DNA from: a virus
Reading direction: 5' to 3' (one strand)
DNA: 64,000 bases
Virus record (IMG/VR): IMGVR_UViG_3300025108_000001
Location: 1-64,000 of that record
The translations under genes and the position numbers were made by a program. Below the pieces are notes generated by a model. That model searched no databases and was not told the origin of the DNA. It saw nothing but the letters and a program-made list of their open reading frames with translations. Shown here one piece after another: positions 28,892 to 53,917 of the stretch. Numbering within the stretch: position 1 is the first letter of the stretch; each line of letters starts with the position of its first letter.

Positions 28892-30295
28892 TTAAGCACT
28901 CTTTAGGTTGGTAATTTTACCTTGTCCCTTGAAGAAAGAACAGCAAGTTTCTCCCATAGTGCGGTACATTCCTTGATTTCCAAGTTTACCAACACCGAAT
29001 GGGTTTCCACTAGTAATACCATCTTCGAAGTATTGTGTAGGTTTCATTACAGATAGCCATAGATGGTCTGTATCTAGAACTAATATATCACTAATTCTGT
29101 TAGATGTGGACTTACCTGTTGACGGCATATCTTTAGCAGGGATAATTGGTATGTCATAGTATGTTGCAACTCTGAAACCAACTTCTTGACCCTTAACACC
29201 ACGAACACCATTATGGGAAGGAACAATTTCTTTCCTATCCATAAATCTCTCTTGTGATTGTAGTAAATCAGAGATTTTCTGTATGGTATCATATCCTGTA
29301 ATGATAACTTTAGGGTTTCCGCCGTTAGTACGGATTCTTCTAATCATATCATTAAGAATACTTAGTGTTAGAACTCTACATTCACCGGATGTATAACCTG
29401 CACCAAAATCAACTTCTGCATCTAGGAAAGATGGAACACCAGTGTAGGTGTATGCTCCACTTCCGCCTGATGTGTTAACAGTAACAGTTCTAGTTGAACC
29501 AAAGATAGTGGTAGCATCAGCAAGTTGTGCTGCTGTACCGTTATTTGTTTGGTTGTGGTAGAATACGTCATCATCAGCCATAGTTGCAAGTTCAACCGCA
29601 GATGAAACTATCTTCATTAAAGAAGTGTAGTTCTTCTCAATACCTGTTGTACCGTTTTCTGAGTATTTCTCAAGAGGCATAACTAACATTTTGCTCTGAA
29701 CTTCTGCGTGTAGTTTACCCATGTCTTCTCTAACGATAGCACGAATATCACCAACACCATCATCAATTGCAGCCATTTCCATTCCTAGTTCTGAGAACTC
29801 GAATAGATGTGCAATAGTCTTAGGGCTAACATATAGTTTAGTATATTCAGGAGCGATTGCTCTAAATCCGTCTGCACCACCTAATGTTGCGTTTTCTCCG
29901 ACACCACCAATTTGGTCTGCTCTAGGAGTTGCTGCATCTGCTGATGAAATACTAGCGGTAACTGCATTAGTACCTGTACCGAATGCTGCATCACTACCAC
30001 CAATAGGTCGTGATTTCAAAACTCTCCAACCGCTTGATGTGTAAGGTCTCTTAGCAAGCATTGCTAGAGGGTTTACTTCTTGGTTTAATACAGACCAAAC
30101 TTTCTGTCCGTATAGTAGGTTGTACAAATCACCTAGACCTGCTGCACCCGTAAATGCATTAGCACTAGTATCGTGAGGAGTACCGAAACCACCTACAACT
30201 CCACCTGCTTTAAGCAAGGCATTGCCGCTTCCTGTTCCGCCATATCCGTATGTTGCTGCTTCTAAATCTTTCATTGTTTTAATATATCCACTCAT
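28892..30295 (-). CDS. Major capsid protein (HK97 fold)
   Basis: 467 aa, directly after the prohead protease. N-terminal propeptide ends ALLK/A; GGNPKVIITGYDT, VATYYDIPIIP, ILVLDTDHL and QGKITNL segments are typical of HK97-like MCPs. Confidence 0.88.
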   Translation of the reverse strand: MSGYIKTMKDLEAATYGYGGTGSGNALLKAGGVVGGFGTPHDTSANAFTGAAGLGDLYNLLYGQKVWSVLNQEVNPLAMLAKRPYTSSGWRVLKSRPIGGSDAAFGTGTNAVTASISSADAATPRADQIGGVGENATLGGADGFRAIAPEYTKLYVSPKTIAHLFEFSELGMEMAAIDDGVGDIRAIVREDMGKLHAEVQSKMLVMPLEKYSENGTTGIEKNYTSLMKIVSSAVELATMADDDVFYHNQTNNGTAAQLADATTIFGSTRTVTVNTSGGSGAYTYTGVPSFLDAEVDFGAGYTSGECRVLTLSILNDMIRRIRTNGGNPKVIITGYDTIQKISDLLQSQERFMDRKEIVPSHNGVRGVKGQEVGFRVATYYDIPIIPAKDMPSTGKSTSNRISDILVLDTDHLWLSVMKPTQYFEDGITSGNPFGVGKLGNQGMYRTMGETCCSFFKGQGKITNLKSA

Positions 30296-30307
30296 AATTT
30301 CACTTCC

Positions 30308-31519
30308 TTAATTTCCCCTCACAAGAGAATGTACGTCATCCCAAGTCATATTGGCTGCTGCCTCTAAACTTGTAGGTATTCCTTCCGGTAATGCCATTGA
30401 CATTTCCACGCTTTTGCGAATTGTTGCGTCTTTCTCTGATAGAGATTTTCGTAGTAGAGCAAACTCTTCTTTTAGTGCTGCTACATCTGTTCTAGCATCG
30501 TATGATGCGGATTCTGCTGCTGATTTCTTAACAGAAAGTTCTTCTGAAAGTCTTGCTTCAAATTGCTTAGAAAGATTATCGTATGCAATTTTTTCCATCT
30601 GCTCTGCTTTGAATTGTGCATATGCTTTCTCAACATTGTCTGCACTTAGGTTAAGAGTACTAAAGTCCGAATCATCTAACCCATTACTCTTTAGTGTTGC
30701 AGGTGCGCTAGTTGGTTTACCACCACTAACTACAAGTTCCCCTGCTTCGTAGTCTCTTGTTGAATCTTCATCAAGAGATTTTGCTTCTTCCTCTTCTTCT
30801 TCATCATCCTTACGCATAGACATCATAGTTTCAACATCTTCTTCTTCTTCTTCATCATCCCTAGTTGACATACTATATTTGGCATTCTTCGTTACTTCGT
30901 CATATTTTCCTTCCTCTCCGAGTCCGTTAACTTGTTTCATCAAGTCATTCAACTCTTCGAGTGCTTTCTCCAATTTTTCACTCATTGTTTTATCCTCCAT
31001 TTTTAAAATGTCGAATTTTGCTTCGGGATTAATCCCTTTTTCACAGATAGTTACTTCATGTAATTCTAACCTGTCTATCTCATTATACTCACCAAACTCA
31101 TCTGATGTTTTTTGTTTCTTAGAAATCGCCTGACCTCCAATACTAAAAGAACGAAGCGTTCCTTTTCTAATACTCCTTGAAATTTCTTTTGCCTTTTCTA
31201 TGTCATCTCTTAATTTAATAACAACATAGAAACCTACGTCATCTACTCCTGTTTTATGAAGAGTTCCATTAGTATCTCTATACTTTTCTATGACTTCTCC
31301 GACCTGAACATTAGAATGATTAGACATAACATTTCTATATTTCTTTTCAGACATATAGTTTTTTGCCGCATCATCTAAAGCACTTAATGTAATTAAATCA
31401 TTTTGTTTATCTACTATTTCTATCGAAGCGTAGCCACCAATAATCAAATCATCGGATTTAAGAATAGTAAACTCATGTTCTCTATCTGCTTTGAATAAAA
31501 GAGAAGGTTGCATAAGCAT
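30308..31519 (-). CDS. Prohead protease (HK97-type) fused to a scaffold domain
   Basis: IIGGYASIEIVDKQND, MSNH, LRSFSIGG and LHEVTICEKGINPEA protease motifs, followed by an acidic coiled-coil C-terminal half. Confidence 0.9.
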   Translation of the reverse strand: MLMQPSLLFKADREHEFTILKSDDLIIGGYASIEIVDKQNDLITLSALDDAAKNYMSEKKYRNVMSNHSNVQVGEVIEKYRDTNGTLHKTGVDDVGFYVVIKLRDDIEKAKEISRSIRKGTLRSFSIGGQAISKKQKTSDEFGEYNEIDRLELHEVTICEKGINPEAKFDILKMEDKTMSEKLEKALEELNDLMKQVNGLGEEGKYDEVTKNAKYSMSTRDDEEEEEDVETMMSMRKDDEEEEEEAKSLDEDSTRDYEAGELVVSGGKPTSAPATLKSNGLDDSDFSTLNLSADNVEKAYAQFKAEQMEKIAYDNLSKQFEARLSEELSVKKSAAESASYDARTDVAALKEEFALLRKSLSEKDATIRKSVEMSMALPEGIPTSLEAAANMTWDDVHSLVRGN

Positions 31520-34408: not shown

Positions 34409-34729
34409 TTACAACCTCCTCATGTTTCCTTTTAAATCAAATTGCATACCGAATGCATCGTATTTTCCTGAAACCTCAACATCAACATAATAACCGCCTT
34501 CTTTATCATCAGGGTCAAGACTTAAGTAAATATCAATATATTTACCGAGACCTGCCAATGCATCTCCACGATTAATCTCATCCTGTAATTCTTTCATTTT
34601 TTCTTCTGTATAATCATTTTCATCAAATATATTATCATTCAAATACGTCTCCACCATTGGCTCAAACAAATCTCTAAATTGTTCAATAGTTTTTCCACTT
34701 TCTTTTTTAATTATTTTTTCCCAACTCAT
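34409..34729 (-). CDS. Acidic protein with MSWxxIIK N-terminal tag
   Basis: Probable start is the internal ATG at 34729 (MSWEKIIK). Confidence 0.7.
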   Translation of the reverse strand: MSWEKIIKKESGKTIEQFRDLFEPMVETYLNDNIFDENDYTEEKMKELQDEINRGDALAGLGKYIDIYLSLDPDDKEGGYYVDVEVSGKYDAFGMQFDLKGNMRRL

Positions 34730-34731
34730 AT

Positions 34732-34962
34732 TTATCTCTCCATTGTAGTTACTAATTCGTGTATGTCTTCCCAAGCCATACTCTTTTTGATAGTATTATC
34801 CATTGGAATATTATTACTATCCATTCTAGGAGAAGGGGAATTAACCACAACTAATCCTGATTTCATAAGTAGGTTATCTTTGTGATAAACTGCTTCCTCC
34901 AAGTGTTTCACCTTATTCACTAATTCTTTTAATAGCATTAACATTTCGTTATCATCACTCAT
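34732..34962 (-). CDS. Small scaffold-like protein
   Basis: Coiled coil; ends IKK/SMAWEDIHELV, paralleling the protease-scaffold end MTWDDVHSLV. Confidence 0.6.
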   Translation of the reverse strand: MSDDNEMLMLLKELVNKVKHLEEAVYHKDNLLMKSGLVVVNSPSPRMDSNNIPMDNTIKKSMAWEDIHELVTTMER

Positions 34963-35035
34963 TTTCTTGTAGCCCCCTAATATACTTGGTTAACTCTTTA
35001 TGTATTAAACTTTCTAACTCTTTTTTTCTACTCAT
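34955..35035 (-). CDS. 26-aa microprotein (not in ORF track)
   Basis: MSRKKELESLIHKELTKYIRGLQENE; overlaps both neighbours and exactly fills the gap. Confidence 0.45.
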   Translation of the reverse strand: MSRKKELESLIHKELTKYIRGLQENE

Positions 35036-35184
35036 CTCTTACTCACCATCTCATCAACGGCCTCTTTTAAATCATCTATAATTTTTCTAAGTTTCACTCT
35101 AAAAGCCAAAGGAATTTCCATAGTGCTTATAGTTCCTATAACTGTTTTTAATGTTTGAATTGTTCTTTGGTCGTATTTTGTCAT
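35032..35184 (-). CDS. Hypothetical protein (50 aa)
   Basis: Probable start MTKYDQ at 35184, just after the upstream stop, with a GGAG SD. Confidence 0.5.
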   Translation of the reverse strand: MTKYDQRTIQTLKTVIGTISTMEIPLAFRVKLRKIIDDLKEAVDEMVSKR

Positions 35185-35185
35185 T

Positions 35186-35860
35186 CTAAATCTCTCCTTT
35201 AAGGTCTTTACCATATTTTTCTCGCCCGTACATACTAGGAGGGGGATAAAATCCTTCATCTGCCATTTCCTCTCTCTCTCTCCTACTGAGAGAATAATAC
35301 CAATTTGCATATCTCTCTCTATCGTCTTCGTCATCATTTCCGCTAGGGTCTTTAGATGACCCTTCTCCTATTTTTAAAGATTCTAAAACAGTATCAGTAA
35401 ATACTTCTTCATCTTCTAAAACTCTAGGAATCCTAAATATCGGCTTATCTCCCATTTCTGTATATGCACCTTCTGAATAGATAACAAAATACAGAATCTT
35501 CTCAATACCTTTGTATTTTACTTTTGTAGCGACACCGCCCTTTACATCGTGTTCGTATAGGCCATCACCATCAGGATTATCTTCAAAGTTATATTTTTCA
35601 TCTATTAATTTAGCAAACGTAATGTTTATCCCTAATTTAGACATTGCTTGTGCAATATCTTCTAGTTCTTTACCTAGTTTTGTTTGATAAGTACTTTCAT
35701 AGGGACTGGTTCGTTTTAAAGACTCATGTAATTTACGCGCAAATGGGATTCTCATATTCATTGCTACTTCTTTATAATTATCAGTAAATCCGTCTTTGTC
35801 AATTCTAACGCCATTAGGTTTTTTAGTAAAATCTCTTTTTAATATATCTTCCCAACTCAT
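35186..35860 (-). CDS. MSWEDILK-tagged hypothetical protein
   Basis: N-terminal tag; ATGA overlap with the upstream gene. Confidence 0.7.
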   Translation of the reverse strand: MSWEDILKRDFTKKPNGVRIDKDGFTDNYKEVAMNMRIPFARKLHESLKRTSPYESTYQTKLGKELEDIAQAMSKLGINITFAKLIDEKYNFEDNPDGDGLYEHDVKGGVATKVKYKGIEKILYFVIYSEGAYTEMGDKPIFRIPRVLEDEEVFTDTVLESLKIGEGSSKDPSGNDDEDDRERYANWYYSLSRREREEMADEGFYPPPSMYGREKYGKDLKGEI

Positions 35861-36183
35861 TCTAAATCCCCCTTACTCTTTGGATAAACTAAGTCTCGTA
35901 TTTGCCGATACAAAGTTTCGTAATCTTTTCTAAGTTCTGCTGCCGAAGAAACTATGTCTAAATTCTTTTCATCGAAACTCTCAAACTTTTTTTGTAGTCT
36001 TTTATCAGACTTAATTAAGTCTAATTTTTTCATCTCATCTAACAGGTCTGAAAGATGAGTCATCTCTTGCCCCATGTATTCAGTAGGTTGAGTTTTTTGA
36101 AGAAGTTTCTTAAGTTTCTTTTTTTGTTTAGTATCAACTTTTTCTAAAATTGAAGATGATTTAAGTATTTCTTTCCAACTCAT
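35857..36183 (-). CDS. MSWKEILK-tagged helical protein
   Basis: N-terminal tag; further ILEK/V and LIK/S sites. Confidence 0.7.
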   Translation of the reverse strand: MSWKEILKSSSILEKVDTKQKKKLKKLLQKTQPTEYMGQEMTHLSDLLDEMKKLDLIKSDKRLQKKFESFDEKNLDIVSSAAELRKDYETLYRQIRDLVYPKSKGDLE

Positions 36184-36232
36184 ACTCAACCACCTTGTCT
36201 ATCCGTTCTTATCTCTAGTTTATGAAGTTTCT

Positions 36233-38371
36233 TTATTTCAACTGATTACGGTCATTATACTCAGGGTTTTCATATTCAGATTCATCTGTGTCTGTAATAT
36301 CATTCCCTTTAGGTGCATCTATGTTCTTACTAAAGAAGGCATCCACCTCTTTCTCAAGGGTTGTAATTTCGTTGCTAATCTTATTGAGGTCTCTTCTAAC
36401 AGTATTTACGTTCCTTAAAGTAAGAACCGCCCATTTTTGTTTATCTAAATCTGATGTCTGTCTTACTAATTTATTTAAAAAATTACTTTTCAATAACACA
36501 TAATTTAGTATTTCAGAATCATTAATTTTAGAAGTATCATTTTCATCAAACTTAGGCAAGGAAGTTTCGTTTTCTTTATTTAGTTTAAACTTCAATTTAA
36601 AATCTATCCATAACTTTTCAGTTCCTTTTCTTTCGTCTCTTAAACGAGTTAGTCTATTTCTTTCAATTACCCCCATATTCTCTTCCGTTCTTTCTCTAGA
36701 AGTATGCGGCTTTAAAAGATAACCGTATTCTACTGGTTGAATAACTTTCCTATCTACTAATTTGCTCTTACCATCTTTATCCTTTACACTTGCTAATGAT
36801 GTTCCATCTTTATCCTTTACACTATTAAGTGGTAATTTAAATGAAGGCAATCCTCCAATAGTTAATTTTTTCTCTAATTCTTTAAATATAGTATTATAAG
36901 TTTTTTTAAGTCTGCCTCTTGCTTTGGTTAGTTCAATTTGTCGTTCAAAATCATCTGCAAGTTCACTACTTTCTTCTTGTTCTTCACTATCAGAACTTGA
37001 TTCTGGAATATCAATACTAGTTAAATAATCTTTAAAATCCCTTACCGATATTTCTTGTCCTTTAATAGAAAAAGTATTACTAAATAAAGAGCCTAAACTT
37101 ACATCATCTTTCATGTAAGGCTTCAAATTATCAATGTCTTGTCTAGTTTGATTATATTCTTTTACTACTGAATTTGGTAAAACTATACCTTTAGTTTCTA
37201 ATATAATTTTTATAAAATGTAATATTTCGTGATACTCCTTTGCTTTCACTAGAGCAATGTCAAATTGTGAAATAGTGTTTTGTGTTTCGCCATCTAAATC
37301 CTTAGCCATTTCAGTTATTTCATTTTCTAACATAATAATTTTTTCCATTATATCTAAAGCAATAGTTCTATAAAGAACCGAGTTTTGTCTGTTTAAAATT
37401 TTACTAATTTCTGTTTCGAGTTCACTATTATCTGCGGCAGGGTCATTAACTACCTCTCCATCTTGACTAATAGTAGGGTTTCCCCCTCTAAAATACAAGT
37501 CCATTATTTGTTTAACATTATCAATTTTAGTAGGATAATCCATATTTAAATAACCTATTAATTTAACACTGCTTAAATTAGTTTTAATATCATCATCAAA
37601 ATCTATATCAAGGGTATCAAATATATCATTCATAATCTCTCTTGAGTTTTTATTATTATATATCTTAAATTGATTTAACCACCCGCCCACTTTTGAAAAG
37701 GACGCTCCCTCATCTACCAATAGATTACGCAACTCAGCAGCAATACGTTTTCTACCTTTAAAAAAATCATTAATTTCGCTAGATAAACTGTTAATTAATT
37801 TAACTTCATCTTCGTCATTTTGATTAACATTACCTCTTAATAGTATGTCTTTAAGTTGTGATGCTATTTCTTCGGTTTTGGTTGCTAGTGGTGAATCAAG
37901 ATTTTTTTGTATTTTCGTAAAAGGGCTATCATCACTAAAAAGTAATTCATGCACTTTAGGATATTTTTCCTCATTGTATTTACTTTTAAGGTTCTCTAAA
38001 GCAGTTTTTAAATTATTCAATGTAGTCAAATCATCACTTTGTCCGGTAGGAAGTAACTGAACTTCGGATACCTCTTCCAAATTCTTATTTTGGGTCTTAA
38101 CTTTTCCACTTTTTCTTTTTACAGCATAGATTTCAGTTGTGCCGCTTGACCCTTTAAAATTACCATCAAATATTATATCATGTTCAATAGGAGTATTAGT
38201 TGTTTCTAATTCCTTTTTTAATTTTAAAAACTCACGTTCTAGATTTGATATGCTGTTAATAGAAACTGTATGAATTTCCTTTCTATTTTTAGATAGAACC
38301 TTTAATATCTTACTCCACGGATTTTTTCTTGCTTTCACAATATCTTTTTTTAAAATATCCATGAACGACAT
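36233..38371 (-). CDS. Large helical protein with tag variant MSFMDILK (712 aa)
   Basis: N-terminus MSFMDILK..IVK/A..PWSKILK; internal SVKDKDG duplication. Confidence 0.7.
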   Translation of the reverse strand: MSFMDILKKDIVKARKNPWSKILKVLSKNRKEIHTVSINSISNLEREFLKLKKELETTNTPIEHDIIFDGNFKGSSGTTEIYAVKRKSGKVKTQNKNLEEVSEVQLLPTGQSDDLTTLNNLKTALENLKSKYNEEKYPKVHELLFSDDSPFTKIQKNLDSPLATKTEEIASQLKDILLRGNVNQNDEDEVKLINSLSSEINDFFKGRKRIAAELRNLLVDEGASFSKVGGWLNQFKIYNNKNSREIMNDIFDTLDIDFDDDIKTNLSSVKLIGYLNMDYPTKIDNVKQIMDLYFRGGNPTISQDGEVVNDPAADNSELETEISKILNRQNSVLYRTIALDIMEKIIMLENEITEMAKDLDGETQNTISQFDIALVKAKEYHEILHFIKIILETKGIVLPNSVVKEYNQTRQDIDNLKPYMKDDVSLGSLFSNTFSIKGQEISVRDFKDYLTSIDIPESSSDSEEQEESSELADDFERQIELTKARGRLKKTYNTIFKELEKKLTIGGLPSFKLPLNSVKDKDGTSLASVKDKDGKSKLVDRKVIQPVEYGYLLKPHTSRERTEENMGVIERNRLTRLRDERKGTEKLWIDFKLKFKLNKENETSLPKFDENDTSKINDSEILNYVLLKSNFLNKLVRQTSDLDKQKWAVLTLRNVNTVRRDLNKISNEITTLEKEVDAFFSKNIDAPKGNDITDTDESEYENPEYNDRNQLK

Positions 38372-38383
38372 AATCTAACTTCC

Positions 38384-38614
38384 TTAGAATGGTATATTTT
38401 CACTACGCATATTCTTTCTTTTAGGTGTTATCATAACATCAGGAATATTACTAGGTGCATCGTCTGTTTTATTTTTTAACGTAGTGCTAGGGTCTACACC
38501 AACAACTGCATAGTCTCTACTAATGTTGACATTACTCCTTTGTTCCGCACCTTCTTTAATTCTCGCTTGCTTCAATTCTCTTTCTAATTGTCTTACACTT
38601 TTTTCTTCACTCAT
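38384..38614 (-). CDS. Hypothetical protein
   Basis: Probable start MSEEKS after an AGGTGA SD. Confidence 0.6.
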   Translation of the reverse strand: MSEEKSVRQLERELKQARIKEGAEQRSNVNISRDYAVVGVDPSTTLKNKTDDAPSNIPDVMITPKRKNMRSENIPF

Positions 38615-38619
38615 ATTAA

Positions 38620-38874
38620 TCACCTGTTTCTCTTTTCTTCATCTAGATTTTTCTTTGCTCTTGCTATGAAAGACTTATGCCCTCCAGTTCTTGGGGGAGT
38701 AATACCTGTAAATGAAGGACTAGCAGGGTTTTCAGTATACATTAAACAACTTCCGTTATTACTAATGTTTACGTTAGGTAATGTGCATTTCATATTTTTA
38801 TTATGTTTACATTTACTGGCTTTACAAACATCTATTCTGCATTCTGCTTCCTTGACTATATTTTTCCAACTCAT
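38620..38874 (-). CDS. MSWKNIVK-tagged Cys-rich protein
   Basis: Tag followed by a C-x4-C-x4-C-x7-C-x12-C small domain. Confidence 0.65.
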   Translation of the reverse strand: MSWKNIVKEAECRIDVCKASKCKHNKNMKCTLPNVNISNNGSCLMYTENPASPSFTGITPPRTGGHKSFIARAKKNLDEEKRNR

Positions 38875-38875
38875 T

Positions 38876-39145
38876 TTAATCTCTCCTCATTTCATCTTGC
38901 ATATCTTCTAAGTGTTTTTCATATTGATTTCTTTCTTCTTGGGTAGTCTCTTCTCTATCTTTCTGATTCATTACATTTCGTGGTTGTTCTTTTCCTGAAG
39001 AATTAACCATATCTTGTAACTCTCTTCGTTCTTTGGTTTTTTGCCTTTCATTAGTAAAGGAAACCGGACTACCATTTACCCTTCTATTCAGACTTATTTT
39101 TTTTCTTGCCGTATTTTTTCTTTTAACTATCTCAAACCAACTCAT
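38876..39145 (-). CDS. MSWFEIVK-tagged charged protein
   Basis: Tag at internal ATG 39145. Confidence 0.65.
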   Translation of the reverse strand: MSWFEIVKRKNTARKKISLNRRVNGSPVSFTNERQKTKERRELQDMVNSSGKEQPRNVMNQKDREETTQEERNQYEKHLEDMQDEMRRD

Positions 39146-39146
39146 C

Positions 39147-39350
39147 TTAATCACTTAATTCCTGTTTAACCCAATCGAACTCATCTTCAACATTATATTT
39201 ACTAAGTTTGTTTCTTATGTTATTCCAACTTGCCCCAAAGTCTAATAGTTTTTTTGTGTATTCTAAAACACTTTTTTTTCTATTACCATAATCTATCCAT
39301 TTTGGATATGAAAAAGATGGTTCAAACTTTAAGGCTTCAAACCATGTCAT
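39147..39350 (-). CDS. MTWFEALK-tagged small protein
   Basis: Tag; abuts the portal stop. Confidence 0.6.
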   Translation of the reverse strand: MTWFEALKFEPSFSYPKWIDYGNRKKSVLEYTKKLLDFGASWNNIRNKLSKYNVEDEFDWVKQELSD

Positions 39351-41009
39351 TTAACCAACTCTCCTTTCTGTTCTTTTGTCATTATTTTGATTCCCTGCAT
39401 CCTTTGGTAATCCTGAAAATCTTTTATCGGGAGCATTAAACATACTAGGCTTGTTTCTTTTTTTAGGTGGTTCTGATTTAACTTTTTCGGGAACACCCGC
39501 TTCGGCCATTGTCGGTTTATTTCCTTCCGCCATCATTTGACCTAACTGACTAGCATCAATATCCGTACCTGCGTAAGGGTCAAGTTCAAACTCATCTTCT
39601 TTACCCTGTTGTTTTTCTTTTTCTTCCATAGGTTTATCATAAGTAAACCTGCCTTCTGAATCCATCTTTACTTCAAATCCTAAGTTCTTTATTGCCCCTG
39701 CAATATTAACTTCCATTTCTCTTAGTCTTAATTTAGCAATTTCATCTTCTTCTTCCGAAGGTGGAAGTTTTAATTCCCAATCTGTAATACCAAATTGATT
39801 AGTAATAAAGGGAAACACATAATTATTCCAAGTCGTTTGAGCCATCTCTACTGCGCGATTAGTAACAAGTATTTGCATACCTTCGTTATTTAATCCACCG
39901 CCCGCAGAAGCGTCATTCATAAACACTTTACTTACACCATAAAAGGCAGAAATTCTATCTCGTAAATCATCTTTTACTGCAACATATTCCATTTCTTTTA
40001 GGCTATCCATGAATCTAACCCATTCAACAGAACCCTTTCCGGTTTCCGATTCAATTCCCATTACCGGAATAAAGTGAGGGTCTTGTTCCATCTTTTCTTT
40101 AACACCTCGCCAAAACGATTTCATTGACTCCATATTTCTTGTCTGAACAGCCAACAATCCCTTCGGCATTCTTGCCTTAGTATATGATGAGTTAACATAA
40201 TTATCCATTGCAATTAATGTAGTAACATTATTCCACAAAGTAAGAATAGGAGACATACCATATAATCTAGAAGGGGAATATTTGCTAAAGTGAACTACTT
40301 CCCCTTTGATGAAATATTGTTCTTCTCCGTTAACACGATTAACATAATGAACAGGATACAATTCTGAATTACAGGTCTCACAAGTTTCACTCGGATGTTC
40401 ATGTATTCTGTCTCTATGGCGCAGACAAACATAACCCCCTTTTCCTCTTTCGCCAAGTTCATTAGAATAAATGTGCATAGTAACAGGGTCGCCTCTAAAC
40501 ACTTCTTTTATTCGATGCATTCTAACCTTAGAATTATTGTCTAAATAATATTCCTTTACTGTAACTAAGTAAGCATCATCCATTATATTCAAATCATCTT
40601 CTAATTCTTTCAATACATCTATGAACATTTGGTCTGCATTATTTACATATCCTTCTAAAAAGTTTTTAGCATACACTAATTGTTTTGAATCCGGTTTAAC
40701 TAAATCAGTAGATTCACAATCTGTGCATTGTAGGACGGGATTAGTATGTTCTTTTCCACAAGAATTACATTTTAATGCAAATTTTTCCTCCCACAAATAC
40801 CCTCTTCTGAAAACCTCTTGTTTAAGTTGGGTAATACAAGTCCTAACAATAGTTGACTGTTGCACTATATGATAAATAATAGGACTAGTTAACATATAGG
40901 AATTATCTCTTTCTTGTATTCCTAAATTGTAAACCGTTCTATCAGCAGGTTTAGGTGTAGTATTTCTAAATAGATTACTAAATGAAAATTTTCTTTTCTC
41001 TTCTACCAT
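39351..41009 (-). CDS. Portal protein with Zn-finger insertions
   Basis: VVHFSKYSPSRLYGMSPI, MPKGLL, EMEY and RISAFYGVS portal motifs; downstream of TerL. Confidence 0.88.
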   Translation of the reverse strand: MVEEKRKFSFSNLFRNTTPKPADRTVYNLGIQERDNSYMLTSPIIYHIVQQSTIVRTCITQLKQEVFRRGYLWEEKFALKCNSCGKEHTNPVLQCTDCESTDLVKPDSKQLVYAKNFLEGYVNNADQMFIDVLKELEDDLNIMDDAYLVTVKEYYLDNNSKVRMHRIKEVFRGDPVTMHIYSNELGERGKGGYVCLRHRDRIHEHPSETCETCNSELYPVHYVNRVNGEEQYFIKGEVVHFSKYSPSRLYGMSPILTLWNNVTTLIAMDNYVNSSYTKARMPKGLLAVQTRNMESMKSFWRGVKEKMEQDPHFIPVMGIESETGKGSVEWVRFMDSLKEMEYVAVKDDLRDRISAFYGVSKVFMNDASAGGGLNNEGMQILVTNRAVEMAQTTWNNYVFPFITNQFGITDWELKLPPSEEEDEIAKLRLREMEVNIAGAIKNLGFEVKMDSEGRFTYDKPMEEKEKQQGKEDEFELDPYAGTDIDASQLGQMMAEGNKPTMAEAGVPEKVKSEPPKKRNKPSMFNAPDKRFSGLPKDAGNQNNDKRTERRVG

Positions 41010-42334
41010 TAAGCAATCACTCCTTCTAATTTATCCATCTCAAACATTTTACACTTATCGTGTAATTTAAAAACAGTAGTAATATCAATACCATCCTTAG
41101 AAAAATCATAACCAACATGGTCTTTATGATTTTCATATTTCATTAATTGAAATAATTCAGTTTTTCTTTCATCATACCAATCTGCTTTTTTATAGGATTT
41201 TTTCATTCGTAATAACTCCAATAATATATCTGCGTTTTTCCCTTTCATTCTAAAATGTGGCCTACATTTAGTTAATAATTCGACTACATCATCATGGGAA
41301 TAAAAATTTAATCTGTTAACAGGTCTAGTGTCTTGCGGAGATTTTTGGTCTAAATGTAATCTACCGCAACCTAATGATTTATGCATCTCTAACATAAACG
41401 CCTTTCCTCTTTCTCCTGTTGCTACCAAACCTACTCTTGGATTGAACTTTTTATCCATAGTAATATAGCCATCCGAATCTATGAAAGCCGCAGTATAAGC
41501 ATAAATATCTTTTTTAATATCATCACTAAACTTATAGAAAGCACCATTGACATTAGTAACATTGCAAGATATAGCCATCTTGGAAATTATACTTGGAGTA
41601 GTTTTATGAAATAAATTCTTAGGTAGTCTTTCATGTATTTGCCTTGCTGAAATTCCTGATTCTTCGCTAACTAAAGAAACAATGTTGTGTTTAATAATTT
41701 CTTTTTTATTAATTGATTTCAGGTGTTTTTTAATTAGATGTTTAAACTCTCTCTTAGAAGATGTCATCTCTTTGGATAGTTTAGCAAAATTACTATTATA
41801 ACCGATTTCATTTTTATCTATTTTTGCTTCCCAATATTTACACAAAACATCTATTATTTTTCTTCTTGTATTTTCATCATCAACATATGATAGTTTGATT
41901 AGTTGGTCTTCGCTACAAGTCATATCTTGTACTTGAGATTTATATTTACTTAACCAATAAATATTATCAATACTATTTTCTAAATGATTAGCGTAACCGT
42001 CAATTAAATTATCAATTGATTTTGACATTTGTATTCTATCTTCTCCTTTCAGAGTTCTTCTATACTTACGCATTTTTTTAATCATCTTAGGGATATCTGT
42101 TCCTTCGACTTCATATTTTTTAAGTTTATATTCAAGATGTTTTCTTGCATCTGTTAAAGATAAATCAAACTCTTTAGCAAATGTTTTTTCCAATTGAGTG
42201 TGGTCTGATATAGTAGAATCAACTAACCAACTTCTCTTCAAATCTTCGGTTATTCTTTTTTGTTGTTCTTCTAGGGATTCTTCTTCATCGGCAAGGTGTC
42301 CGAGTTCTCTTAATTTGTCTCCTTTTTCACTAAT
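41009..42334 (-). CDS. HTH plus single-motif LAGLIDADG endonuclease-like protein
   Basis: YTAAFIDSDGYIT motif, downstream LGCGRL..RPHFRMK, and wHTH-like GISARQIHERL. The frame is open upstream to ATT at 42334, preceded by GGAGGTGA. Confidence 0.75.
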   Translation of the reverse strand: MSEKGDKLRELGHLADEEESLEEQQKRITEDLKRSWLVDSTISDHTQLEKTFAKEFDLSLTDARKHLEYKLKKYEVEGTDIPKMIKKMRKYRRTLKGEDRIQMSKSIDNLIDGYANHLENSIDNIYWLSKYKSQVQDMTCSEDQLIKLSYVDDENTRRKIIDVLCKYWEAKIDKNEIGYNSNFAKLSKEMTSSKREFKHLIKKHLKSINKKEIIKHNIVSLVSEESGISARQIHERLPKNLFHKTTPSIISKMAISCNVTNVNGAFYKFSDDIKKDIYAYTAAFIDSDGYITMDKKFNPRVGLVATGERGKAFMLEMHKSLGCGRLHLDQKSPQDTRPVNRLNFYSHDDVVELLTKCRPHFRMKGKNADILLELLRMKKSYKKADWYDERKTELFQLMKYENHKDHVGYDFSKDGIDITTVFKLHDKCKMFEMDKLEGVIA

Positions 42335-42357
42335 ACTCTCACCTCCGCTACTTGCCT

Positions 42358-43791
42358 CTAGAAGTTCAGTCCTAACATACCGCCTAAAGAGTTATTCGTA
42401 GTTGTGGGAGCATTGAATAATCCCATATCATCTAATAACATAAATACATCTTGTGAATTTTGCGTGGCGGCATTGGCTAATGCCAAACTCATTACTAAGT
42501 CATCGTGTGCGCCTACGCCTTCAAACTTTCCTGAATGAGTAATAGAAAACATTGACAATTCTTCTATCAACATATTGGTTAATTTTTTACTAGAGTTGTC
42601 GCCATAGGGAAAGTTAATTTTTCCATTTTCTATGTTCATTTGTAGGTTAAGAATTATTTCCTGTTTTCTCTTTCTTGTTGTGTTGAAATCAGTTACATTC
42701 AAATCTGAAACATTTCTTAACTCTTGAGTAAATGCCTTAGCAAACGTATTTGTTTCATATAGAATTTCTTCGGGTTCAAATATTTTACCTATCAATCTAA
42801 TTTTATCTATATTTTCTCTAAACTCAACATTCTTGGCTCTATCCACATGAACAATTGTTTTATTCATATTTTCATCAACTTCTAAAACAGTAATTACATT
42901 ATAATCTCCATCGGTAGAGATAGCAGGGTCAACACCAACGTAATATTTGTATCCCTTGTCTTTTCTATGTCCCAATTTTAATACATATTCTTTATTTTTA
43001 CATTTAGTTACAAATTCAGGATTGAAAAGTGCTGTTCCTGTGGAAATTGGAACACAAAGATATTCTCTTGTAAATTTTAGAGAACCGATTTCTGCCTTTC
43101 TTTGCATCAGTGCTTCATAATTCCATCTCTCCGGCCAAAGAGGTTCATTTAAAGAATTAAGACAAGGGTATCTGTTTACAGTATAGGCATCATTCTCTTC
43201 TAACTGTGCAAATATATCTGTATAGGTAAAAGGAGTGCCAATCATTCTCAATTTAGAAGTGTGATGTAGTGTCGGTATCATATCTCCGAAAAACCAATCA
43301 GTAACTTTCTCTATACCAACTATACTGAACTCTTTCAAAGGGTCGTCAATAATAATTTCTTGAGGATGTAGTCCTCTAATCTGAGAACCTACGGAACGCT
43401 CTAAAATTGCATTGCCGTTTGTTAATTGAATATTACCAATAGCCCAACCCCTGCTAGGTCTAAATTGTTTTAATGCGGGTAAGTTGAAATATCTATCTAT
43501 TTCTCTCATATGAACTAAAGTCTGCTTTTGGTTAGAAGAAATGTATAGCATCTGAAAAGGAGGCTCTTGGAATACTAAATTCCATACTACCCAACTGTGC
43601 ATAAATACAGATTTGCCGTGGTCTCTACTACAAATTATAACTGTTCTATCAGTAGTATTCATAGAGTCTAACCATTCTTGCATATATTCAGGATACATCA
43701 TACCTAAAACATTTTGAAAAAAATATGGAAAGGAAGTTTTAGATAATTCCATATCCATTTGGGTTACGAAATCTAATTCATTTAACTCCAA
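42358..43791 (-). CDS. terL: Terminase large subunit
   Basis: Walker A SRDHGKS, Walker B IIIDD, motif III IGTP, nuclease VGVDPA and HDDLVMS. Confidence 0.93.
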   Translation of the reverse strand: MELNELDFVTQMDMELSKTSFPYFFQNVLGMMYPEYMQEWLDSMNTTDRTVIICSRDHGKSVFMHSWVVWNLVFQEPPFQMLYISSNQKQTLVHMREIDRYFNLPALKQFRPSRGWAIGNIQLTNGNAILERSVGSQIRGLHPQEIIIDDPLKEFSIVGIEKVTDWFFGDMIPTLHHTSKLRMIGTPFTYTDIFAQLEENDAYTVNRYPCLNSLNEPLWPERWNYEALMQRKAEIGSLKFTREYLCVPISTGTALFNPEFVTKCKNKEYVLKLGHRKDKGYKYYVGVDPAISTDGDYNVITVLEVDENMNKTIVHVDRAKNVEFRENIDKIRLIGKIFEPEEILYETNTFAKAFTQELRNVSDLNVTDFNTTRKRKQEIILNLQMNIENGKINFPYGDNSSKKLTNMLIEELSMFSITHSGKFEGVGAHDDLVMSLALANAATQNSQDVFMLLDDMGLFNAPTTTNNSLGGMLGLNF

Positions 43792-43795
43792 AAAA

Positions 43796-46528
43796 TCACC
43801 TAAAATTAGCCTTTATGAAATACACGCCTTCTTTTGGAACACCATGTTTTATACTTATGTCGTGCATAGAATTAACTTCATTCACTATCGAATGTATCTC
43901 ATGCGCTGAAACATCAATATTAAAATCCTTTTTTAGTATCTCAATTGTAGCATTTACATGGTCGAAATTATGTGTTTTAGAAGTATTATAATATACGGGC
44001 TTACCCATCATTTTTCTGATGCTATCATGTGCATCTAATATTTTTAATTCATCTTCGCTACGCAAAACTTTCATATCCTGTATCGCAGTTTTGAATGCAG
44101 TTATTCCCTTTTGACTACCTATCTTTTTTTTACCAACTGAGGTTGAGGTTAAACTAGCGTCTTGTCTAAGAATTACATTAACGAGTTGTTTGAAAGGATA
44201 GTTTACTCTGGGATTAAATTCTTCGTACCAGTCTTTAGGAGTTTTATTACTAGAAGAATTAGGATAATAACCGTTTATATTAGAAGTTTCTTTATGATAT
44301 TCAAACCACTCGTTTACTAAATTATTGTTTTCTAAAGTTTCATATAAAAATGAACCAAACTCGGTATTTATTTCATCAACAATAACGCCTTCACCTTTAA
44401 CGAGTAACATCTCTTTTACTAAAGAACTAATTTGTTTAAATTCTTTTTTCAAGTTAGCAAAATTAACATCCTTTAGAGAAGAATTAACTAAATTAACAAA
44501 GTCAGTGATTTCTCTCAAATCTTCAGCAGAAATCATAGCGTAACCTAACTGTCTTTCTAAATCTAATATTCGTGTAAATGAATTATTTTTACTAGAACCT
44601 CCCGCTAATGATTTAAAGGTTTTAATGCTTTTTTCATTTATAGTAAAAGCAATTTCATCATCAAAAGGAACATATTGGTTGTAAACAGGCACTACGAAAA
44701 AATCTATAATAGCATTTAGCAATTCATCTAGTTCGTTTTCTGCGTTAATTAATTCTGAACGATATTCTTTAACATTTAATGTGCCTACATTTTCTAACCG
44801 CTTTTTCCTATTAATTCCTTGAATATCTTTAGCACCCATATCTAATGAAGACTCTTTGCCGTATTTAGTTGCAGTAGGCGAGACACTTTCATTGTATATT
44901 TTAGAAAAAGTATTTAGGAAACTTGAAATCCTTTTACTTTTGTTGTCTATATCTTCTCCATTTAGTTCATTATTAGATGAATCATCTTCTTTATTATCAA
45001 TAACTAAATCCGACTTTGTTGTGGAAGATAGCGGTAAATAAAATTCGGTCATTGAATCAGTAACAGAAGCCAAGTCTTTAAGTTCTTCAAAATATTCTAA
45101 TATTTTAGAATCCATTGCTATTCTAGTATTATAATTAACATCAAATTTTGCTCCTTGAATTAATAATAATTTTTTCATTCTTTTAAGTTGGTTTTCAAAA
45201 ATTGGCGTATTTTTAAACGCTTCTGAATTGCCTCTATCAGTAAAAGCACGATAGTATATAGGGTCAACAGCAACAGTGTTTTGAAAATTAGTTAATATTT
45301 GTTCTAATTGCTTTACTTCCGATATCGAAGCGGCATCTACTTCTTCTTGCATAGTAACTTCTGCGGTTTTACCACTTTGACTTCCTTCTTTATCATAAGT
45401 TGTTACTGCAATAGGGGAATCCGTCTCCACTTTATCTTCACCATCACCCAAAAATCTTACTATATTTTTATTTTTCAAAAGTTCTACAAATAATTTAACG
45501 TGAACTTTTGATTTCATATATCCCTTCACTTGCATTTTTTTAAATCTAGTTATATAATTTAAATTGGTTTTAATATTATTAGAGTTTATCTCATTTTTAA
45601 ATAATTTTAACTCTCCTACAATATCCTTTAATTCGGACGTAAGAGCCTCTTCGTCAACTTTCTCAACAGCATTAATAAAATCAGAATACTTAGTTTGAAA
45701 GTCTTCGTAGTCTTTATTAACACCCGACCAATATGAATATATTGCCTTTCTATTTTTTAAACTTCTAAGGTCTAGTTTACCTGTTATACTAGGTGCAGAC
45801 AATATAATTTTTTTAGCCGTTCCTTCCTCATCATAACTTCTAAGTATTTCAAATACTGGCTCTAATACAGAAGACAGGCCTTTTTTATTCAGACTATCAA
45901 TATACTGTATGAAATTGTCAATAGTTTCGGGGTCTAAACTAACACCACTTTTCAATCTTAAATTATTCAATGAATGAGTCTTATCAATAAAAACTCTCTT
46001 AACCGTTAAAGTTTCTCTAGAATTTCTATCCGAAAAGTTTGCAAGCATTTCATCTATTTTTTCTACGTTTACTCCGCTTCTTTCAACTAAGACTGAAATA
46101 TCCCCTCTAAAATTAGAGTTTAATTCTGACTCAAACGCTTCACCTAATATTTGCTCTAATGCGTAATTTTCCATAACATTAATTTTTTTTGGAAAATCTA
46201 ACACTTCTGTTGGAAAGCCAACAAACAGATTACTTGCTTTTCCTCTCAACCAAACTCTAAAAGCCTGTTTTTTAGATTTTGAAGACCCTTCTCCTAACAT
46301 ATCAGAAGGGTCGGATAACATGAAAGATTTATTTTCAGTCATATATTTATGCAAATGAGAAGGTTCGGAAAAAATTATATTTAATATTTCATCCATTCTA
46401 TCATCTAAACCGTCATCAGTAACATCCTTTTCATTTTCTTCTATGTGTTTCTCTATATTAAGTTCTAACCTAGAACGGCCTTTTTCAATATATACCTTAA
46501 ATAATTCATACGATTTATCAATATCCAT
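43796..46528 (-). CDS. Large hypothetical protein (910 aa)
   Basis: Long charged ORF upstream of TerL; helical C-terminal domain. Confidence 0.65.
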   Translation of the reverse strand: MDIDKSYELFKVYIEKGRSRLELNIEKHIEENEKDVTDDGLDDRMDEILNIIFSEPSHLHKYMTENKSFMLSDPSDMLGEGSSKSKKQAFRVWLRGKASNLFVGFPTEVLDFPKKINVMENYALEQILGEAFESELNSNFRGDISVLVERSGVNVEKIDEMLANFSDRNSRETLTVKRVFIDKTHSLNNLRLKSGVSLDPETIDNFIQYIDSLNKKGLSSVLEPVFEILRSYDEEGTAKKIILSAPSITGKLDLRSLKNRKAIYSYWSGVNKDYEDFQTKYSDFINAVEKVDEEALTSELKDIVGELKLFKNEINSNNIKTNLNYITRFKKMQVKGYMKSKVHVKLFVELLKNKNIVRFLGDGEDKVETDSPIAVTTYDKEGSQSGKTAEVTMQEEVDAASISEVKQLEQILTNFQNTVAVDPIYYRAFTDRGNSEAFKNTPIFENQLKRMKKLLLIQGAKFDVNYNTRIAMDSKILEYFEELKDLASVTDSMTEFYLPLSSTTKSDLVIDNKEDDSSNNELNGEDIDNKSKRISSFLNTFSKIYNESVSPTATKYGKESSLDMGAKDIQGINRKKRLENVGTLNVKEYRSELINAENELDELLNAIIDFFVVPVYNQYVPFDDEIAFTINEKSIKTFKSLAGGSSKNNSFTRILDLERQLGYAMISAEDLREITDFVNLVNSSLKDVNFANLKKEFKQISSLVKEMLLVKGEGVIVDEINTEFGSFLYETLENNNLVNEWFEYHKETSNINGYYPNSSSNKTPKDWYEEFNPRVNYPFKQLVNVILRQDASLTSTSVGKKKIGSQKGITAFKTAIQDMKVLRSEDELKILDAHDSIRKMMGKPVYYNTSKTHNFDHVNATIEILKKDFNIDVSAHEIHSIVNEVNSMHDISIKHGVPKEGVYFIKANFR

Positions 46529-46530
46529 AA

Positions 46531-48999: not shown

Positions 49000-49000
49000 C

Positions 49001-49306
49001 TTATTTATCTCCAACTTCATAGAACAGTGCTTCATTAGACTCGGCAGGGGTTAATCTTCCAAGAGGGTGTCTTCCGGCATCAAAACATTCCTTACAAGAA
49101 TCTCCCAAATCCGAATTATCATTGTCCGGTTCATAATCCACAATCGTCCACTTTTTTCCTAATAACTTCATACGACAAGAATCACAAATCTTCTTACCAC
49201 ATCCTCCTTCACAGGCTGTATGGTGAACCTCTTTCTCATTAGGACTAATACCACAATAAGAGCAATCTTGTTCAGTTTCACTTTTTAATACATCTTGCCA
49301 ATTCAT
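49001..49306 (-). CDS. MNWQDVLK-tagged Cys-rich Zn-binding protein
   Basis: Tag plus CSYC, CEGGC, CDSC and CKEC. Confidence 0.7.
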   Translation of the reverse strand: MNWQDVLKSETEQDCSYCGISPNEKEVHHTACEGGCGKKICDSCRMKLLGKKWTIVDYEPDNDNSDLGDSCKECFDAGRHPLGRLTPAESNEALFYEVGDK

Positions 49307-49318
49307 TGAACTCTCTCC

Positions 49319-49864
49319 TTAGACATCTTCTCTTCTGTCAAATGCCGTATGTTGGTCTGCATTTCTTCTTTGCTTCCAACCACCTTCGACCCGTTTTGTT
49401 TTAGGTCGTCTTAAATTAGATAAAGCACTAGAGCCGCTAAGATTTCTTGTTAAAGGCGGTAATGCAAAACTAAATTTTTCATTTTTAATTGACCCTGCAC
49501 TATATTCAATTGTAATAATTGCATCTTCTTCGGGATAAGCGTCATCGAACAAAGTATTAGCCACATCCCCTCTATCTCGATTTTTTTGTGGCTTAACTAC
49601 TACATCGTGAATTTTTATTCTAAGGCTACTTGGAAGACCCTTATATCCTCCATAATGTTGAATCACGCTAACTAATTGATTATCAGGAAATTGATTCCTT
49701 CTTAGTTTGTATAAATCACTTTTACTCATCATTAATATTCCGTTAGTTAAAGCACTTTCAATAGTAATCTTTAATTTGCCTTCACTCATTTCTTCAGGTG
49801 CGTGTTTCCTACCTAACATTCTTGCTTCTCTTAAATCAACTTTTAATATTTCTTTCCAACTCAT
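49319..49864 (-). CDS. MSWKEILK-tagged protein
   Basis: Probable start at 49864 (ATGA overlap). Confidence 0.7.
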   Translation of the reverse strand: MSWKEILKVDLREARMLGRKHAPEEMSEGKLKITIESALTNGILMMSKSDLYKLRRNQFPDNQLVSVIQHYGGYKGLPSSLRIKIHDVVVKPQKNRDRGDVANTLFDDAYPEEDAIITIEYSAGSIKNEKFSFALPPLTRNLSGSSALSNLRRPKTKRVEGGWKQRRNADQHTAFDRREDV

Positions 49865-50247
49865 TGTATTAACCCCTCTAATTTCATTTTTTCCCAAAAC
49901 CCTGATGTATGGGGTTGTATTTTAGACACGGTTGGTAATACATTCGTGTCTTCCAATGAATGCAATTCCTCAATAAACTCCTTAAGATATTCTCTTGCCT
50001 TGCCTTTATTTTGTATATTATCTTTAATAGTAAACACATGAATATCCCAAAAATAGTTACTTGGATTTTCGTCTTGATGATAAACTGCTTCACCCCTTGC
50101 CTTTTTATCATTAGATTCCCATGTTAATTTATCATCCCATTCAGGCGTTAAATCTGACAAGTATTGAAATTGTTTGTCCTTTCTTGGTTTATATGGATTA
50201 CTACCCATATACCAAGTAGGAGATTTCAAAATATTCATCCAACTCAT
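49861..50247 (-). CDS. MSWMNILK-tagged GNAT-like protein
   Basis: IHVFTIKDNIQNKGKAREYL resembles GNAT motif A (Q/RxxGxG/A); also GFWEKM. Confidence 0.55.
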   Translation of the reverse strand: MSWMNILKSPTWYMGSNPYKPRKDKQFQYLSDLTPEWDDKLTWESNDKKARGEAVYHQDENPSNYFWDIHVFTIKDNIQNKGKAREYLKEFIEELHSLEDTNVLPTVSKIQPHTSGFWEKMKLEGLIQ

Positions 50248-50262
50248 TGTAATCTCTCCTTC

Positions 50263-51224: not shown

Positions 51225-51228
51225 CTAA

Positions 51229-51480: not shown

Positions 51481-51497
51481 CTTAATTTCTCCCTCAT

Positions 51498-51680: not shown

Positions 51681-51681
51681 C

Positions 51682-53912: not shown

Positions 53913-53917
53913 ATTAA

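Follow-up and report, generated by a model that had tools for sequence, protein, structure and literature searches.

Protease-Scaffold and Capsid Genes

The stretch of DNA analyzed here, termed the window, comprises 64,000 nucleotides (positions 1 to 64,000 of the IMG/VR virus record IMGVR_UViG_3300025108_000001) and derives from a magrovirus (a tailed virus whose hosts are marine group II archaea) or from a near relative of this group. Magroviruses are uncultured, although they are abundant in surface seawater, and to our knowledge nothing is known of how their capsids mature. In the window, two adjacent genes encode a prohead protease fused to a scaffold and the major capsid protein (MCP). 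Both products carry a lysine-centered motif that may represent the cleavage code of the protease, and a similar motif ends an N-terminal tag (MSWxxILK) found on about 18 other proteins of this virus. The two genes and the parts of their products are listed below, with secondary structure and confidence (predicted local distance difference test, pLDDT) from AlphaFold2 (AF2) models:

28892..30295, minus strand: MCP gene, HK97-type fold, 467 amino acids (aa); matches Pfam SU10_MCP and PHROG major head protein
30209..30295, minus strand: candidate MCP propeptide, residues 1-29, ending in ALLK; predicted mature start at A30 (AGGVVGG...)
30308..31519, minus strand: protease-scaffold fusion gene, 403 aa; matches Pfam Peptidase_S78 and PHROG head maturation protease
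31457..31519, minus strand: N-terminal leader, residues 1-21, ending in FTILK; candidate cut K21/S22; pLDDT ~50 for residues 1-20
31001..31456, minus strand: protease domain, residues 22-173, last strand KFDILK; candidate self-release cut K173/M174
30311..31000, minus strand: scaffold part, residues 174-403, with AF2 secondary structure
30311..30349, minus strand: scaffold C-terminal helix MTWDDVHSLVRGN, consensus M-S-W-x-D-I-H-x-L-x-R-G; helix 393-401

The product of the fusion gene matches the Pfam family Peptidase_S78 (PF04586; MEROPS S78) over residues 26-175 with 38.1 bits, against a curated cut-off of 21, and the PHROG head maturation protease family at 8.6e-15. Among 101 homologues at 24-92% identity only five alignment columns are invariant; two of these are His68 and Ser126, which align with the His (NHKTW) and Ser (GMSVGF) contexts of HK97 gp4. 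Three acidic residues, D37, D106, and E155, are likewise invariant or close to it. In the AF2 model built from the alignment of these homologues (mean pLDDT 78), the protease domain reaches a pLDDT of 94-98, and Foldseek matches this domain to the proteases of Epstein-Barr virus (EBV), varicella-zoster virus (VZV), herpes simplex virus (HSV) and human cytomegalovirus (HCMV) and to T4 gp21 (E 4e-5 to 1e-3); a sequence search of the Protein Data Bank returned no close relative with a solved structure. The end of the protease gene (30308) adjoins the start of the MCP gene (30295), the head-module placement expected of an S78 protease. Every defining feature of the family that was open to testing (profile match, catalytic His/Ser, assemblin-like fold, and head-module placement) was found, and we infer that the gene encodes an active HK97-family (S78) prohead serine protease, with His68 and Ser126 as catalytic residues, fused to a scaffold.

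The AF2 fold spans from strand 26-33 to strand 168-173, the latter formed by KFDILK, and confidence falls afterwards. The scaffold is predicted to consist of a helix (179-199), a disordered acidic region (~200-292), two long helices (293-338 and 342-361), a loop (362-384) that holds K369, and two short C-terminal helices. The acidic, low-confidence stretch (30644-30920, minus strand) contains Glu/Asp runs (DDEEEEED, DDEEEEEEA) and separates the first scaffold helix from the C-terminal coiled part; relatives differ strongly in how long it is and in its sequence. In the C-terminal helix W393 and H397 are invariant, and the first six positions correspond to the tag consensus MSWxDI. A first-pass annotation of this DNA had described the protease domain as bracketed by FTILK/SDD and FDILK/MED. 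Both strings are present, but FDILK is the last strand of the fold itself and FTILK lies in the low-confidence leader; FTILK was also considered as the first core strand of the fold and rejected, as AF2 leaves residues 1-20 at low confidence.

Enrichment of a Lysine-Centered Motif

Motif counts were compared with shuffles that preserve the composition of each protein, where h denotes [ILVMF]. In the protease-scaffold, [ILVMF]-x-K occurs 20 times against 9.8 expected (p = 0.0004) and [ILVMF]-x-K-[AS] 8 times against 1.67 (p = 0.0002). The protease part and the scaffold part both add to the excess, and the scaffold part alone holds 10 h-x-K against 4.5 (p = 0.004) and 5 h-x-K[AS] against 0.95 (p = 0.001). 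With R, E, D, Q, N, S, T, A, or G at P1, the protease-scaffold has no excess over its shuffles, and h-x-E in the scaffold stands at 8 against 7.5; general amphipathicity is therefore not the cause of the Lys excess. The MCP is weakly enriched in h-x-K (11 versus 6.2, p ~0.03), and the other 37 window proteins, when pooled (15,912 aa), hold 41 h-x-K[AS] against 43.6 expected, i.e., no excess. The motif strings named in the first-pass annotation are all present, residue for residue, in the protease-scaffold and the MCP. The idea put forward there depended on an enrichment of [ILVMF]xK[ASDE] above the background of these Lys-rich proteins, and this is found in the protease-scaffold (9 versus 3.7, p = 0.016).

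The sole other window protein with a comparable h-x-K excess is a 410-aa product (41009-42241, minus strand) with a weak PHROG match to HNH endonucleases, in which [ILVMF]-x-K occurs 31 times against 15.4 (p = 0.002) with no preference for Ala or Ser after the Lys.

The enrichment extends to sister clades and to the wider protease family. Besides clade 1 (that of the window), two sister clades were compared (clade 2, relatives of P0130, and clade 3, relatives of P0134; loci L083-L156 and L159-L238). In clade 2, whose protease-scaffold and MCP are 39% and 36% identical to those of clade 1, h-x-K[AS] occurs 9 times against 1.68 (p = 2e-4), and in clade 3 it occurs 6 times against 1.03 (p = 1e-3), with 21 h-x-K against 6.75. 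An exhaustive profile-free search provided 150 family representatives at no more than 50% identity to one another, 115 of which have at least 100 residues after the protease domain. Within the first 300 residues of these 115 tails, there are 926 h-x-K against 643 expected (z = 13.7) and 247 h-x-K[AS] against 93 (z = 16.9), compared with 57 against 37.1 for h-x-R[AS] (z = 3.5) and z of about 0-1 for h-x-E[AS] and h-x-D[AS]. Both the GYAS and the GPAS subfamilies (named from the surroundings of the first strand) are ~2.7-fold enriched, and 92 of the 115 proteins lie above expectation. When a Lys-centered logo is built without prior assumptions, I, L, M, V, and F take the top five places at P3 and at no other position, and P1' favors M, A, and S most; Glu- or Arg-centered logos have no such pattern. 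In the GYAS subfamily, 61 of 73 members additionally carry h-x-K at most 13 residues upstream of the fold.

The junction between protease and scaffold is itself conserved. Lys fills the K173 column in 120 of 137 family representatives, within a logo that reads F (114) - D/E (70) - I/L/V (117) - L/I/M/V (120) - K; P1' is A, S, or G in 95 of these 120, and the sequence beyond is unalignable. Long-tailed representatives have K at this column in 120 of 130 cases (124 counting a Lys one residue later), while all seven representatives that end within 15 residues past it lack K, having Q, Y, W, or N. This distribution is suggestive of a Lys that marks a cut releasing the protease from what follows, although the coincidence of a lost K173 with a missing tail comes down to at most five independent changes on a weakly supported tree, on which a sign test cannot reach significance.

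Comparison With Characterized Maturation Proteases

The cut of HK97 after Lys103, on which the first-pass annotation had drawn, is seen in NC_002167 as K-T-F-N-K103/S-L-G-S, with Phe at P3 and Ser at P1', and fits the motif. The 103-residue delta domain of the HK97 capsid protein is enriched in h-x-K[AS] (4 versus 0.58, p = 0.002), as is the magrovirus scaffold, and HK97 gp4 has A-A-M-K/S at the end of its catalytic part. The two systems share the S78 family, the His/Ser pair, and the position of the protease gene directly upstream of the capsid gene. They differ in layout: HK97 has its scaffold built into the capsid protein, as the N-terminal delta domain, next to a stand-alone protease (226 aa), whereas the magrovirus protease carries the scaffold as a C-terminal fusion and the MCP has a short putative propeptide of 29 residues. 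Work by Duda and colleagues from 2013 is said to have described the C-terminal part of HK97 gp4 as capsid-targeting. In T5, residues 159/160 of pb8 are K/A, at the end of a scaffold domain that we take, from the T5 literature, to be 159 residues long; this delta domain is likewise enriched in h-x-K[AS] (4 versus 0.63, p = 0.002), and N-L-A-K/S follows the catalytic part of the T5 protease. Literature searches returned nothing usable on T5 cleavage details. The literature searched, a set without several key papers, contained no published S78 consensus of the form h-x-K/[A/S]. Phage D3 was considered as a second HK97-like anchor and dropped, since its protease is annotated as ClpP-like and the cut follows Ala.

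T4 served as a control with a different code, as gp21 cuts after [L/I]-x-E (PMC10052503, PMC12991175). The shuffle statistic finds h-x-E in excess in gp22 (23 versus 12.9, p = 3e-4), gp21 (11 versus 4.4, p = 7e-4), and gp68 (7 versus 3.0), and no excess for Lys in these T4 proteins. The statistic thus recovers the T4 code, which shows that it reads protease specificity from sequence. As in T4, the magrovirus motif combines a hydrophobic P3 with a charged P1 and is scattered through scaffold and protease; unlike in T4, the charged residue is Lys rather than Glu, and the enzymes belong to different families (S78 here, S77 in T4).

Two further systems resemble the magrovirus protein in architecture. 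The herpesvirus assemblin-scaffold has the same fold and the same order, with an N-terminal protease and a scaffold with a capsid-binding C-terminus, and its R and M sites would correspond to the predicted cuts at K173 (the domain junction) and K369 (before the C-terminal tail); the two proteins have no detectable sequence similarity, however, and the sites proposed here are Lys/small residue instead of the Ala/Ser of herpesviruses. Phage P2 gpO, which cuts itself and takes ~31 N-terminal residues off the capsid protein gpN, also has an N-terminal protease domain and a C-terminal scaffold, but its protease is of family S73.

The closest cultured relatives of the magrovirus MCP are HVTV-1 and HCTV-1 (Druskaviridae). 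The HVTV-1 protease has P-V-F-K/S before its domain, V-V-S-K/A after it, and V-Q-K/S 24 residues from its end, similar to the arrangement here; it differs in a 170-residue N-terminal extension, and the leader of the capsid protein is ~100 residues long. Although HVTV-1 is halophilic and this protein is Lys-poor, it contains 13 h-x-K against 7.5 expected and keeps K at both domain borders.

Candidate Cleavage Sites and Their Conservation

Conservation of the sites was examined in 57 non-identical relatives of the protease-scaffold (60-88% identity):

FTILK/SDD, residues 17-21/22: F-x-I-L-K-S invariant, residues 1-16 vary
FDILK/MED, residues 169-173/174: Lys and hydrophobic P3 invariant, P1' variable
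LEK/A, residue 185: kept in 84% of relatives
MRK/D, residue 237: kept in 2% of relatives
VEK298/A, 30626..30634, minus strand: candidate scaffold site; K, hydrophobic P3, and P1' Ala invariant
MEK/I, residue 310: kept in 65% of relatives
VKK332/S, 30524..30532, minus strand: candidate scaffold site; K invariant, P1' S (36) or A (21)
LRK358/S, 30446..30454, minus strand: candidate scaffold site; K invariant, P1' S (49) or A (8)
IRK369/S, 30413..30421, minus strand: candidate cut in loop 362-384; I and K conserved, P1' A/S, flanks vary

Of the scaffold motifs listed in the first-pass annotation, those at 298, 332, 358, and 369 are invariant, LEK/A is kept in most relatives, MEK/I is weakly conserved, and MRK/D is not conserved, so that part of the list was noise. 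K21, K173, and K369 are at borders between order and disorder in the AF2 model, and K298, K332, and K358 are inside helices. At residue 369 the flanks vary freely around a conserved I and K, the signature of a short functional motif. Comparable sites occur in more distant relatives, with LQK/S at 37 and 43 residues from the C-terminus in clades 2 and 3, respectively, where it is invariant amid otherwise unalignable sequence, and with the VQK/S of HVTV-1 described above. K369 is listed as a candidate site, at which a cut would free the C-terminal capsid-binding tail in a manner comparable to that of the herpesvirus M-site.

In the MCP, ALLK/A was confirmed at residues 26-29/30, followed by AGGVVGG. 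Residues 1-30 are near-invariant within clade 1, which by itself says little. Clades differ in the length and sequence of the linker that joins the N-terminal helix (Y-I-K/R-T-x-x-D-L/M-E) to the conserved block Y-G-x-K-V-W-S-x-L-N-Q-E, and yet all three clades, whose MCPs are ~36% identical, have [A/E/D]-L-L-K/[A/S] within it (NALLK/AGG here, SELLK/ADS in clade 2, and TDLLK/ADS in clade 3). MAFFT leaves the three LLK motifs unaligned because of the surrounding indels. The HVTV-1 capsid protein has G-G-M-S-K/A-D-N ~22 residues before its YG.EVFSLLN block, the same distance as in clades 2 and 3; a cut there would give a predicted mature protein beginning with ADNLLDTT at residue 103. On this comparative evidence K29/A30 is the likeliest maturation cut of the MCP, an assignment that we consider fairly probable.

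N-Terminal MSWxxILK Tags

Seventeen ATG-started open reading frames (ORFs) of the window, in the region 34706..54885 on the minus strand, begin with M-[STN]-W-x-x-[IVAT]-[LIV]-K, encoded at:

34706-34729, minus strand: tag codons
35837-35860, minus strand: tag codons
36160-36183, minus strand: tag codons
38851-38874, minus strand: tag codons
39122-39145, minus strand: tag codons
39327-39350, minus strand: tag codons
48976-48999, minus strand: tag codons
49283-49306, minus strand: tag codons
49841-49864, minus strand: tag codons
50224-50247, minus strand: tag codons
50548-50571, minus strand: tag codons
51457-51480, minus strand: tag codons
51657-51680, minus strand: tag codons
53521-53544, minus strand: tag codons
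53889-53912, minus strand: tag codons
54366-54389, minus strand: tag codons
54862-54885, minus strand: tag codons

The terminase and portal genes lie among the tagged genes, and all are on one strand. Most tagged proteins are ~50-130 aa long, and those tested have no Pfam family in common. Among 127 unique M-x-W-x-x-h-h starts from the clade 1 loci and the window, position 8 is Lys in 119 and never Arg; of these 119, 100 have Asp, Glu, or Asn at position 5, 115 have Ile or Val at position 6, and 117 have Leu, Ile, or Val at position 7. Positions 5-8 ([DEN]-[IV]-[LIV]-K) thereby match P4-P1 in the junction logo of the family ([DE]-[IL]-L-K). The first-pass annotation was correct that the tag ends like the putative cleavage sites, and the likeness is sharper than it claimed, because the tag resembles the scaffold docking helix joined to the protease junction. 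The residue that would occupy P1' is not preferentially small (K 19, A 17, E 13, N 13, and R 10 of 119).

The tags appear to be restricted to one clade, as essentially none occur up to 10 kb from the head genes of clades 2 and 3, which nevertheless share the protease, the motif enrichment, and LLK/A. Covariation of P1 among tags, junction, and MCP site is consequently unreadable, with Lys invariant in three clades and tags present in one. At the nucleotide level, Ser at position 2 is encoded by AGT in 93 of 97 tags from the clade 1 loci and the window, versus 31% of Ser codons in the long genes of the window. A GGAG-type ribosome-binding site is conserved upstream of the tags, followed by A/T-rich spacing (start region ATGAGTTGG). 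The AGT bias and this conserved upstream site point to a nucleotide-level constraint on, or a recent common origin of, the 5' ends of the tags; the Ile, Leu, and Lys codons of the tag vary synonymously, which argues for selection on the peptide.

Several tag-like peptides were also observed in other positions. A 712-aa protein (36233-38371, minus strand) begins with two such peptides in tandem, MSFMDILK (residues 1-8) and NPWSKILK (17-24), and a putative long TTG-started ORF ends (51753-51794, minus strand) in NWKDILKREMIC, with a tag-like peptide at its C-terminus. The clade 2 scaffold C-terminus still has M-S-W-E-E-V-H. In the HVTV-1 protease (L157, KC117377), residues 609-616 read A-E-V-Q-K/S-W-E-Q, and a cut at this site would leave an N-terminus S-W-E-x, like the start of a magrovirus tag minus its Met.

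Proposed Maturation Pathway and Alternative Explanations

The best overall explanation of these observations is an S78 protease-scaffold with a Lys code and four cleavage activities in the procapsid, which we judge on balance to be probable. The protease appears to prefer Lys at P1, a hydrophobic residue at P3 (and often at P2), and a small residue (Ala, Ser, or Gly) at P1', which is the pattern of the HK97 cut F-N-K103/S. Inside the assembled procapsid, the enzyme would release itself from the scaffold after K173 (F-D-I-L-K/M), perhaps trim its own leader after K21, cut the scaffold at the conserved K298, K332, and K358, detach the C-terminal capsid-binding helix at K369, and remove residues 1-29 of the MCP after A-L-L-K29, so that the mature protein would start at A30. 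The placement of the sites in the AF2 models also favors this pathway, with K173 at the very end of the fold, K369 inside a loop, and K29 within predicted coil. The first-pass annotation had proposed Lys at P1 with a hydrophobic P3, and had suggested that one protease could both mature the shell and strip the tags. Its specificity, now extended by the small P1', receives comparative support from the HK97 site, from K/A at residues 159/160 of T5 pb8, from Lys-specific enrichment in three clades and 115 tails, and from the T4 control; the fate of the tags is less certain and is considered below.

Several points weigh against this pathway. Every cleavage in it is predicted from statistics and analogy, and cleavage products are not known from any magrovirus. 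The MCP as a whole is not enriched in h-x-K[AS], and its AF2 model, which predicts a helix at residues 8-16 and coil at 17-53, is poor (pLDDT 54) and good at most for a coil/helix reading of the N-terminus. The conservation of FDILK has a second explanation, because it is a structural strand of the fold. P3 at the T5 site is His, not a hydrophobic residue. The z of about 17 for the family tails overstates independence because the representatives are related, although the h-x-K[AS] enrichment is general across the family despite this relatedness. P1 specificity also varies within the superfamily, since the related Pro of phage P1 cuts after Glu (E120/S121; PMC9024508).

This variation, together with the [LI]-x-E of T4 and the A-x-E of the SPN3US protease (PMC10052503), would allow for a different preference here, e.g., Glu, with the Lys pattern as a by-product of Lys-rich coding in AT-rich genomes. 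We regard this as very improbable: the shuffles keep composition and other Lys-rich proteins of the same virus lack the excess, h-x-E is not in excess in the scaffold, the Lys-poor HVTV-1 protease nevertheless has its h-x-K excess and border Lys residues, and Lys occupies the known or reported cut in HK97 and T5, the nearest family members with experimental work behind them. Alternatively, h-x-K-[AS] could be a structural or binding feature of scaffolds, arising from helix periodicity or from Lys contacts with an acidic capsid interior or DNA-mimicking surfaces, with the real cuts elsewhere or at one or two of the sites. The positions of 298, 332, and 358 in long predicted helices (H293-338 and H342-361), the role of FDILK as a strand, and the amphipathic, charge-rich nature of scaffold proteins are consistent with this. 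Amphipathicity should, however, also enrich Glu, Asp, Arg, or Gln, none of which is enriched; the same statistic follows the known specificity in T4, to Glu and not Lys; the experimentally defined HK97 cut fits the motif; and the domain junction, which lacks a predicted helix, retains a small P1'. A purely structural origin consequently seems unlikely to us, if less so than a different P1 residue.

A separate question is whether the Lys code, if real for the protease, scaffold, and MCP, extends to the tags. The tags may not be substrates at all, and their Lys could instead be an acceptor for conjugation, a contact of a docking helix, or the result of a nucleotide constraint at the 5' end for translation initiation; this we find nearly as easy to accept as to reject. 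It would account for the lack of tags near the head genes of clades 2 and 3, for a P1' more varied and less often small than at the junction, and for the AGT bias and conserved GGAG-type site, which may reflect a nucleotide-level constraint or common descent, and a strict Lys without Arg also fits a conjugation site. Against it stand the synonymous variation of the Ile, Leu, and Lys codons, the match of positions 5-8 to P4-P1 of the junction and of positions 1-6 to the scaffold C-terminal helix, the interleaving of tagged genes with those for terminase and portal, and the size of the tagged proteins, which is near that of the T4 internal proteins (~95-100 aa for IPI and IPII and ~190 aa for IPIII). 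In T4, N-terminal targeting peptides of ~10 residues on unrelated small proteins end in the protease motif and are removed, and the magrovirus tags, which are known from sequence alone, have the same layout. If the tags do carry proteins into the procapsid as in T4, the same protease might also strip them, a possibility that we hold to be real but doubtful. Since the first half of the tag copies the scaffold helix (M-S-W-x-D-I) and the second half the self-release junction ([DE]-I-L-K), we tentatively suggest a T4-like system of cargo loading for clade 1, in which ~18-20 small, unrelated proteins would dock in the procapsid by an 8-residue tag, be clipped after Lys8, and be delivered with the DNA into the archaeal host. 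If true, this would be the first system of capsid targeting and protein injection described for an archaeal virus.

The preferred pathway, with cleavage of protease, scaffold, and MCP after Lys, yields predictions at the level of single residues (an MCP that starts at A30, protease release at K173, and release of the scaffold tail at K369), which expression of the two genes would test. Standard trypsin proteomics cannot confirm these sites, because cuts after Lys resemble tryptic ends. The enzyme is of an ordinary kind, found in an uncultured archaeal virus, with an apparent specificity like that of its best-studied relative. More broadly, HK97-family proteases may write their specificity into their substrates as h-x-K/[A/S], and a cleavage code that can be read in this way could be used to annotate maturation sites in thousands of uncultured viruses. 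For the tags, the Lys code offers a concrete reason for the invariant Lys at their end and ties them to an enzyme.

Genomic Context

Long ORFs from ~55 kb down to base 2 of the window are all on the minus strand. Three genes upstream of the protease gene, on the same strand, are relevant to the identity of the virus and its head module:

31560-34181, minus strand: ATP-dependent DNA ligase, directly upstream of the protease gene
39351-41009, minus strand: portal
42358-43791, minus strand: large terminase

The nearest cultured relatives of the MCP, at 23% identity, are the haloarchaeal siphoviruses HCTV-1 and HVTV-1, and hundreds of further relatives are found on marine IMG/VR contigs that reach 96-107 kb. 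A ligase embedded in a halovirus-like head module is a trait described for magrovirus groups A and B (PMC5434244), and the relatives of ~100 kb, the halovirus-like head module, and the embedded ATP-dependent DNA ligase all agree with these groups of the order Magrovirales. The assignment to a magrovirus or a close relative follows from the ligase within the head module, the marine MCP relatives, and the halovirus-nearest MCP. Within the same block of virion genes, a small GTPase-like protein is encoded at 26738-27406 (minus strand), whose Pfam matches (SRPRB, Roc, and Arf) are weak and all fall short of the cut-off.

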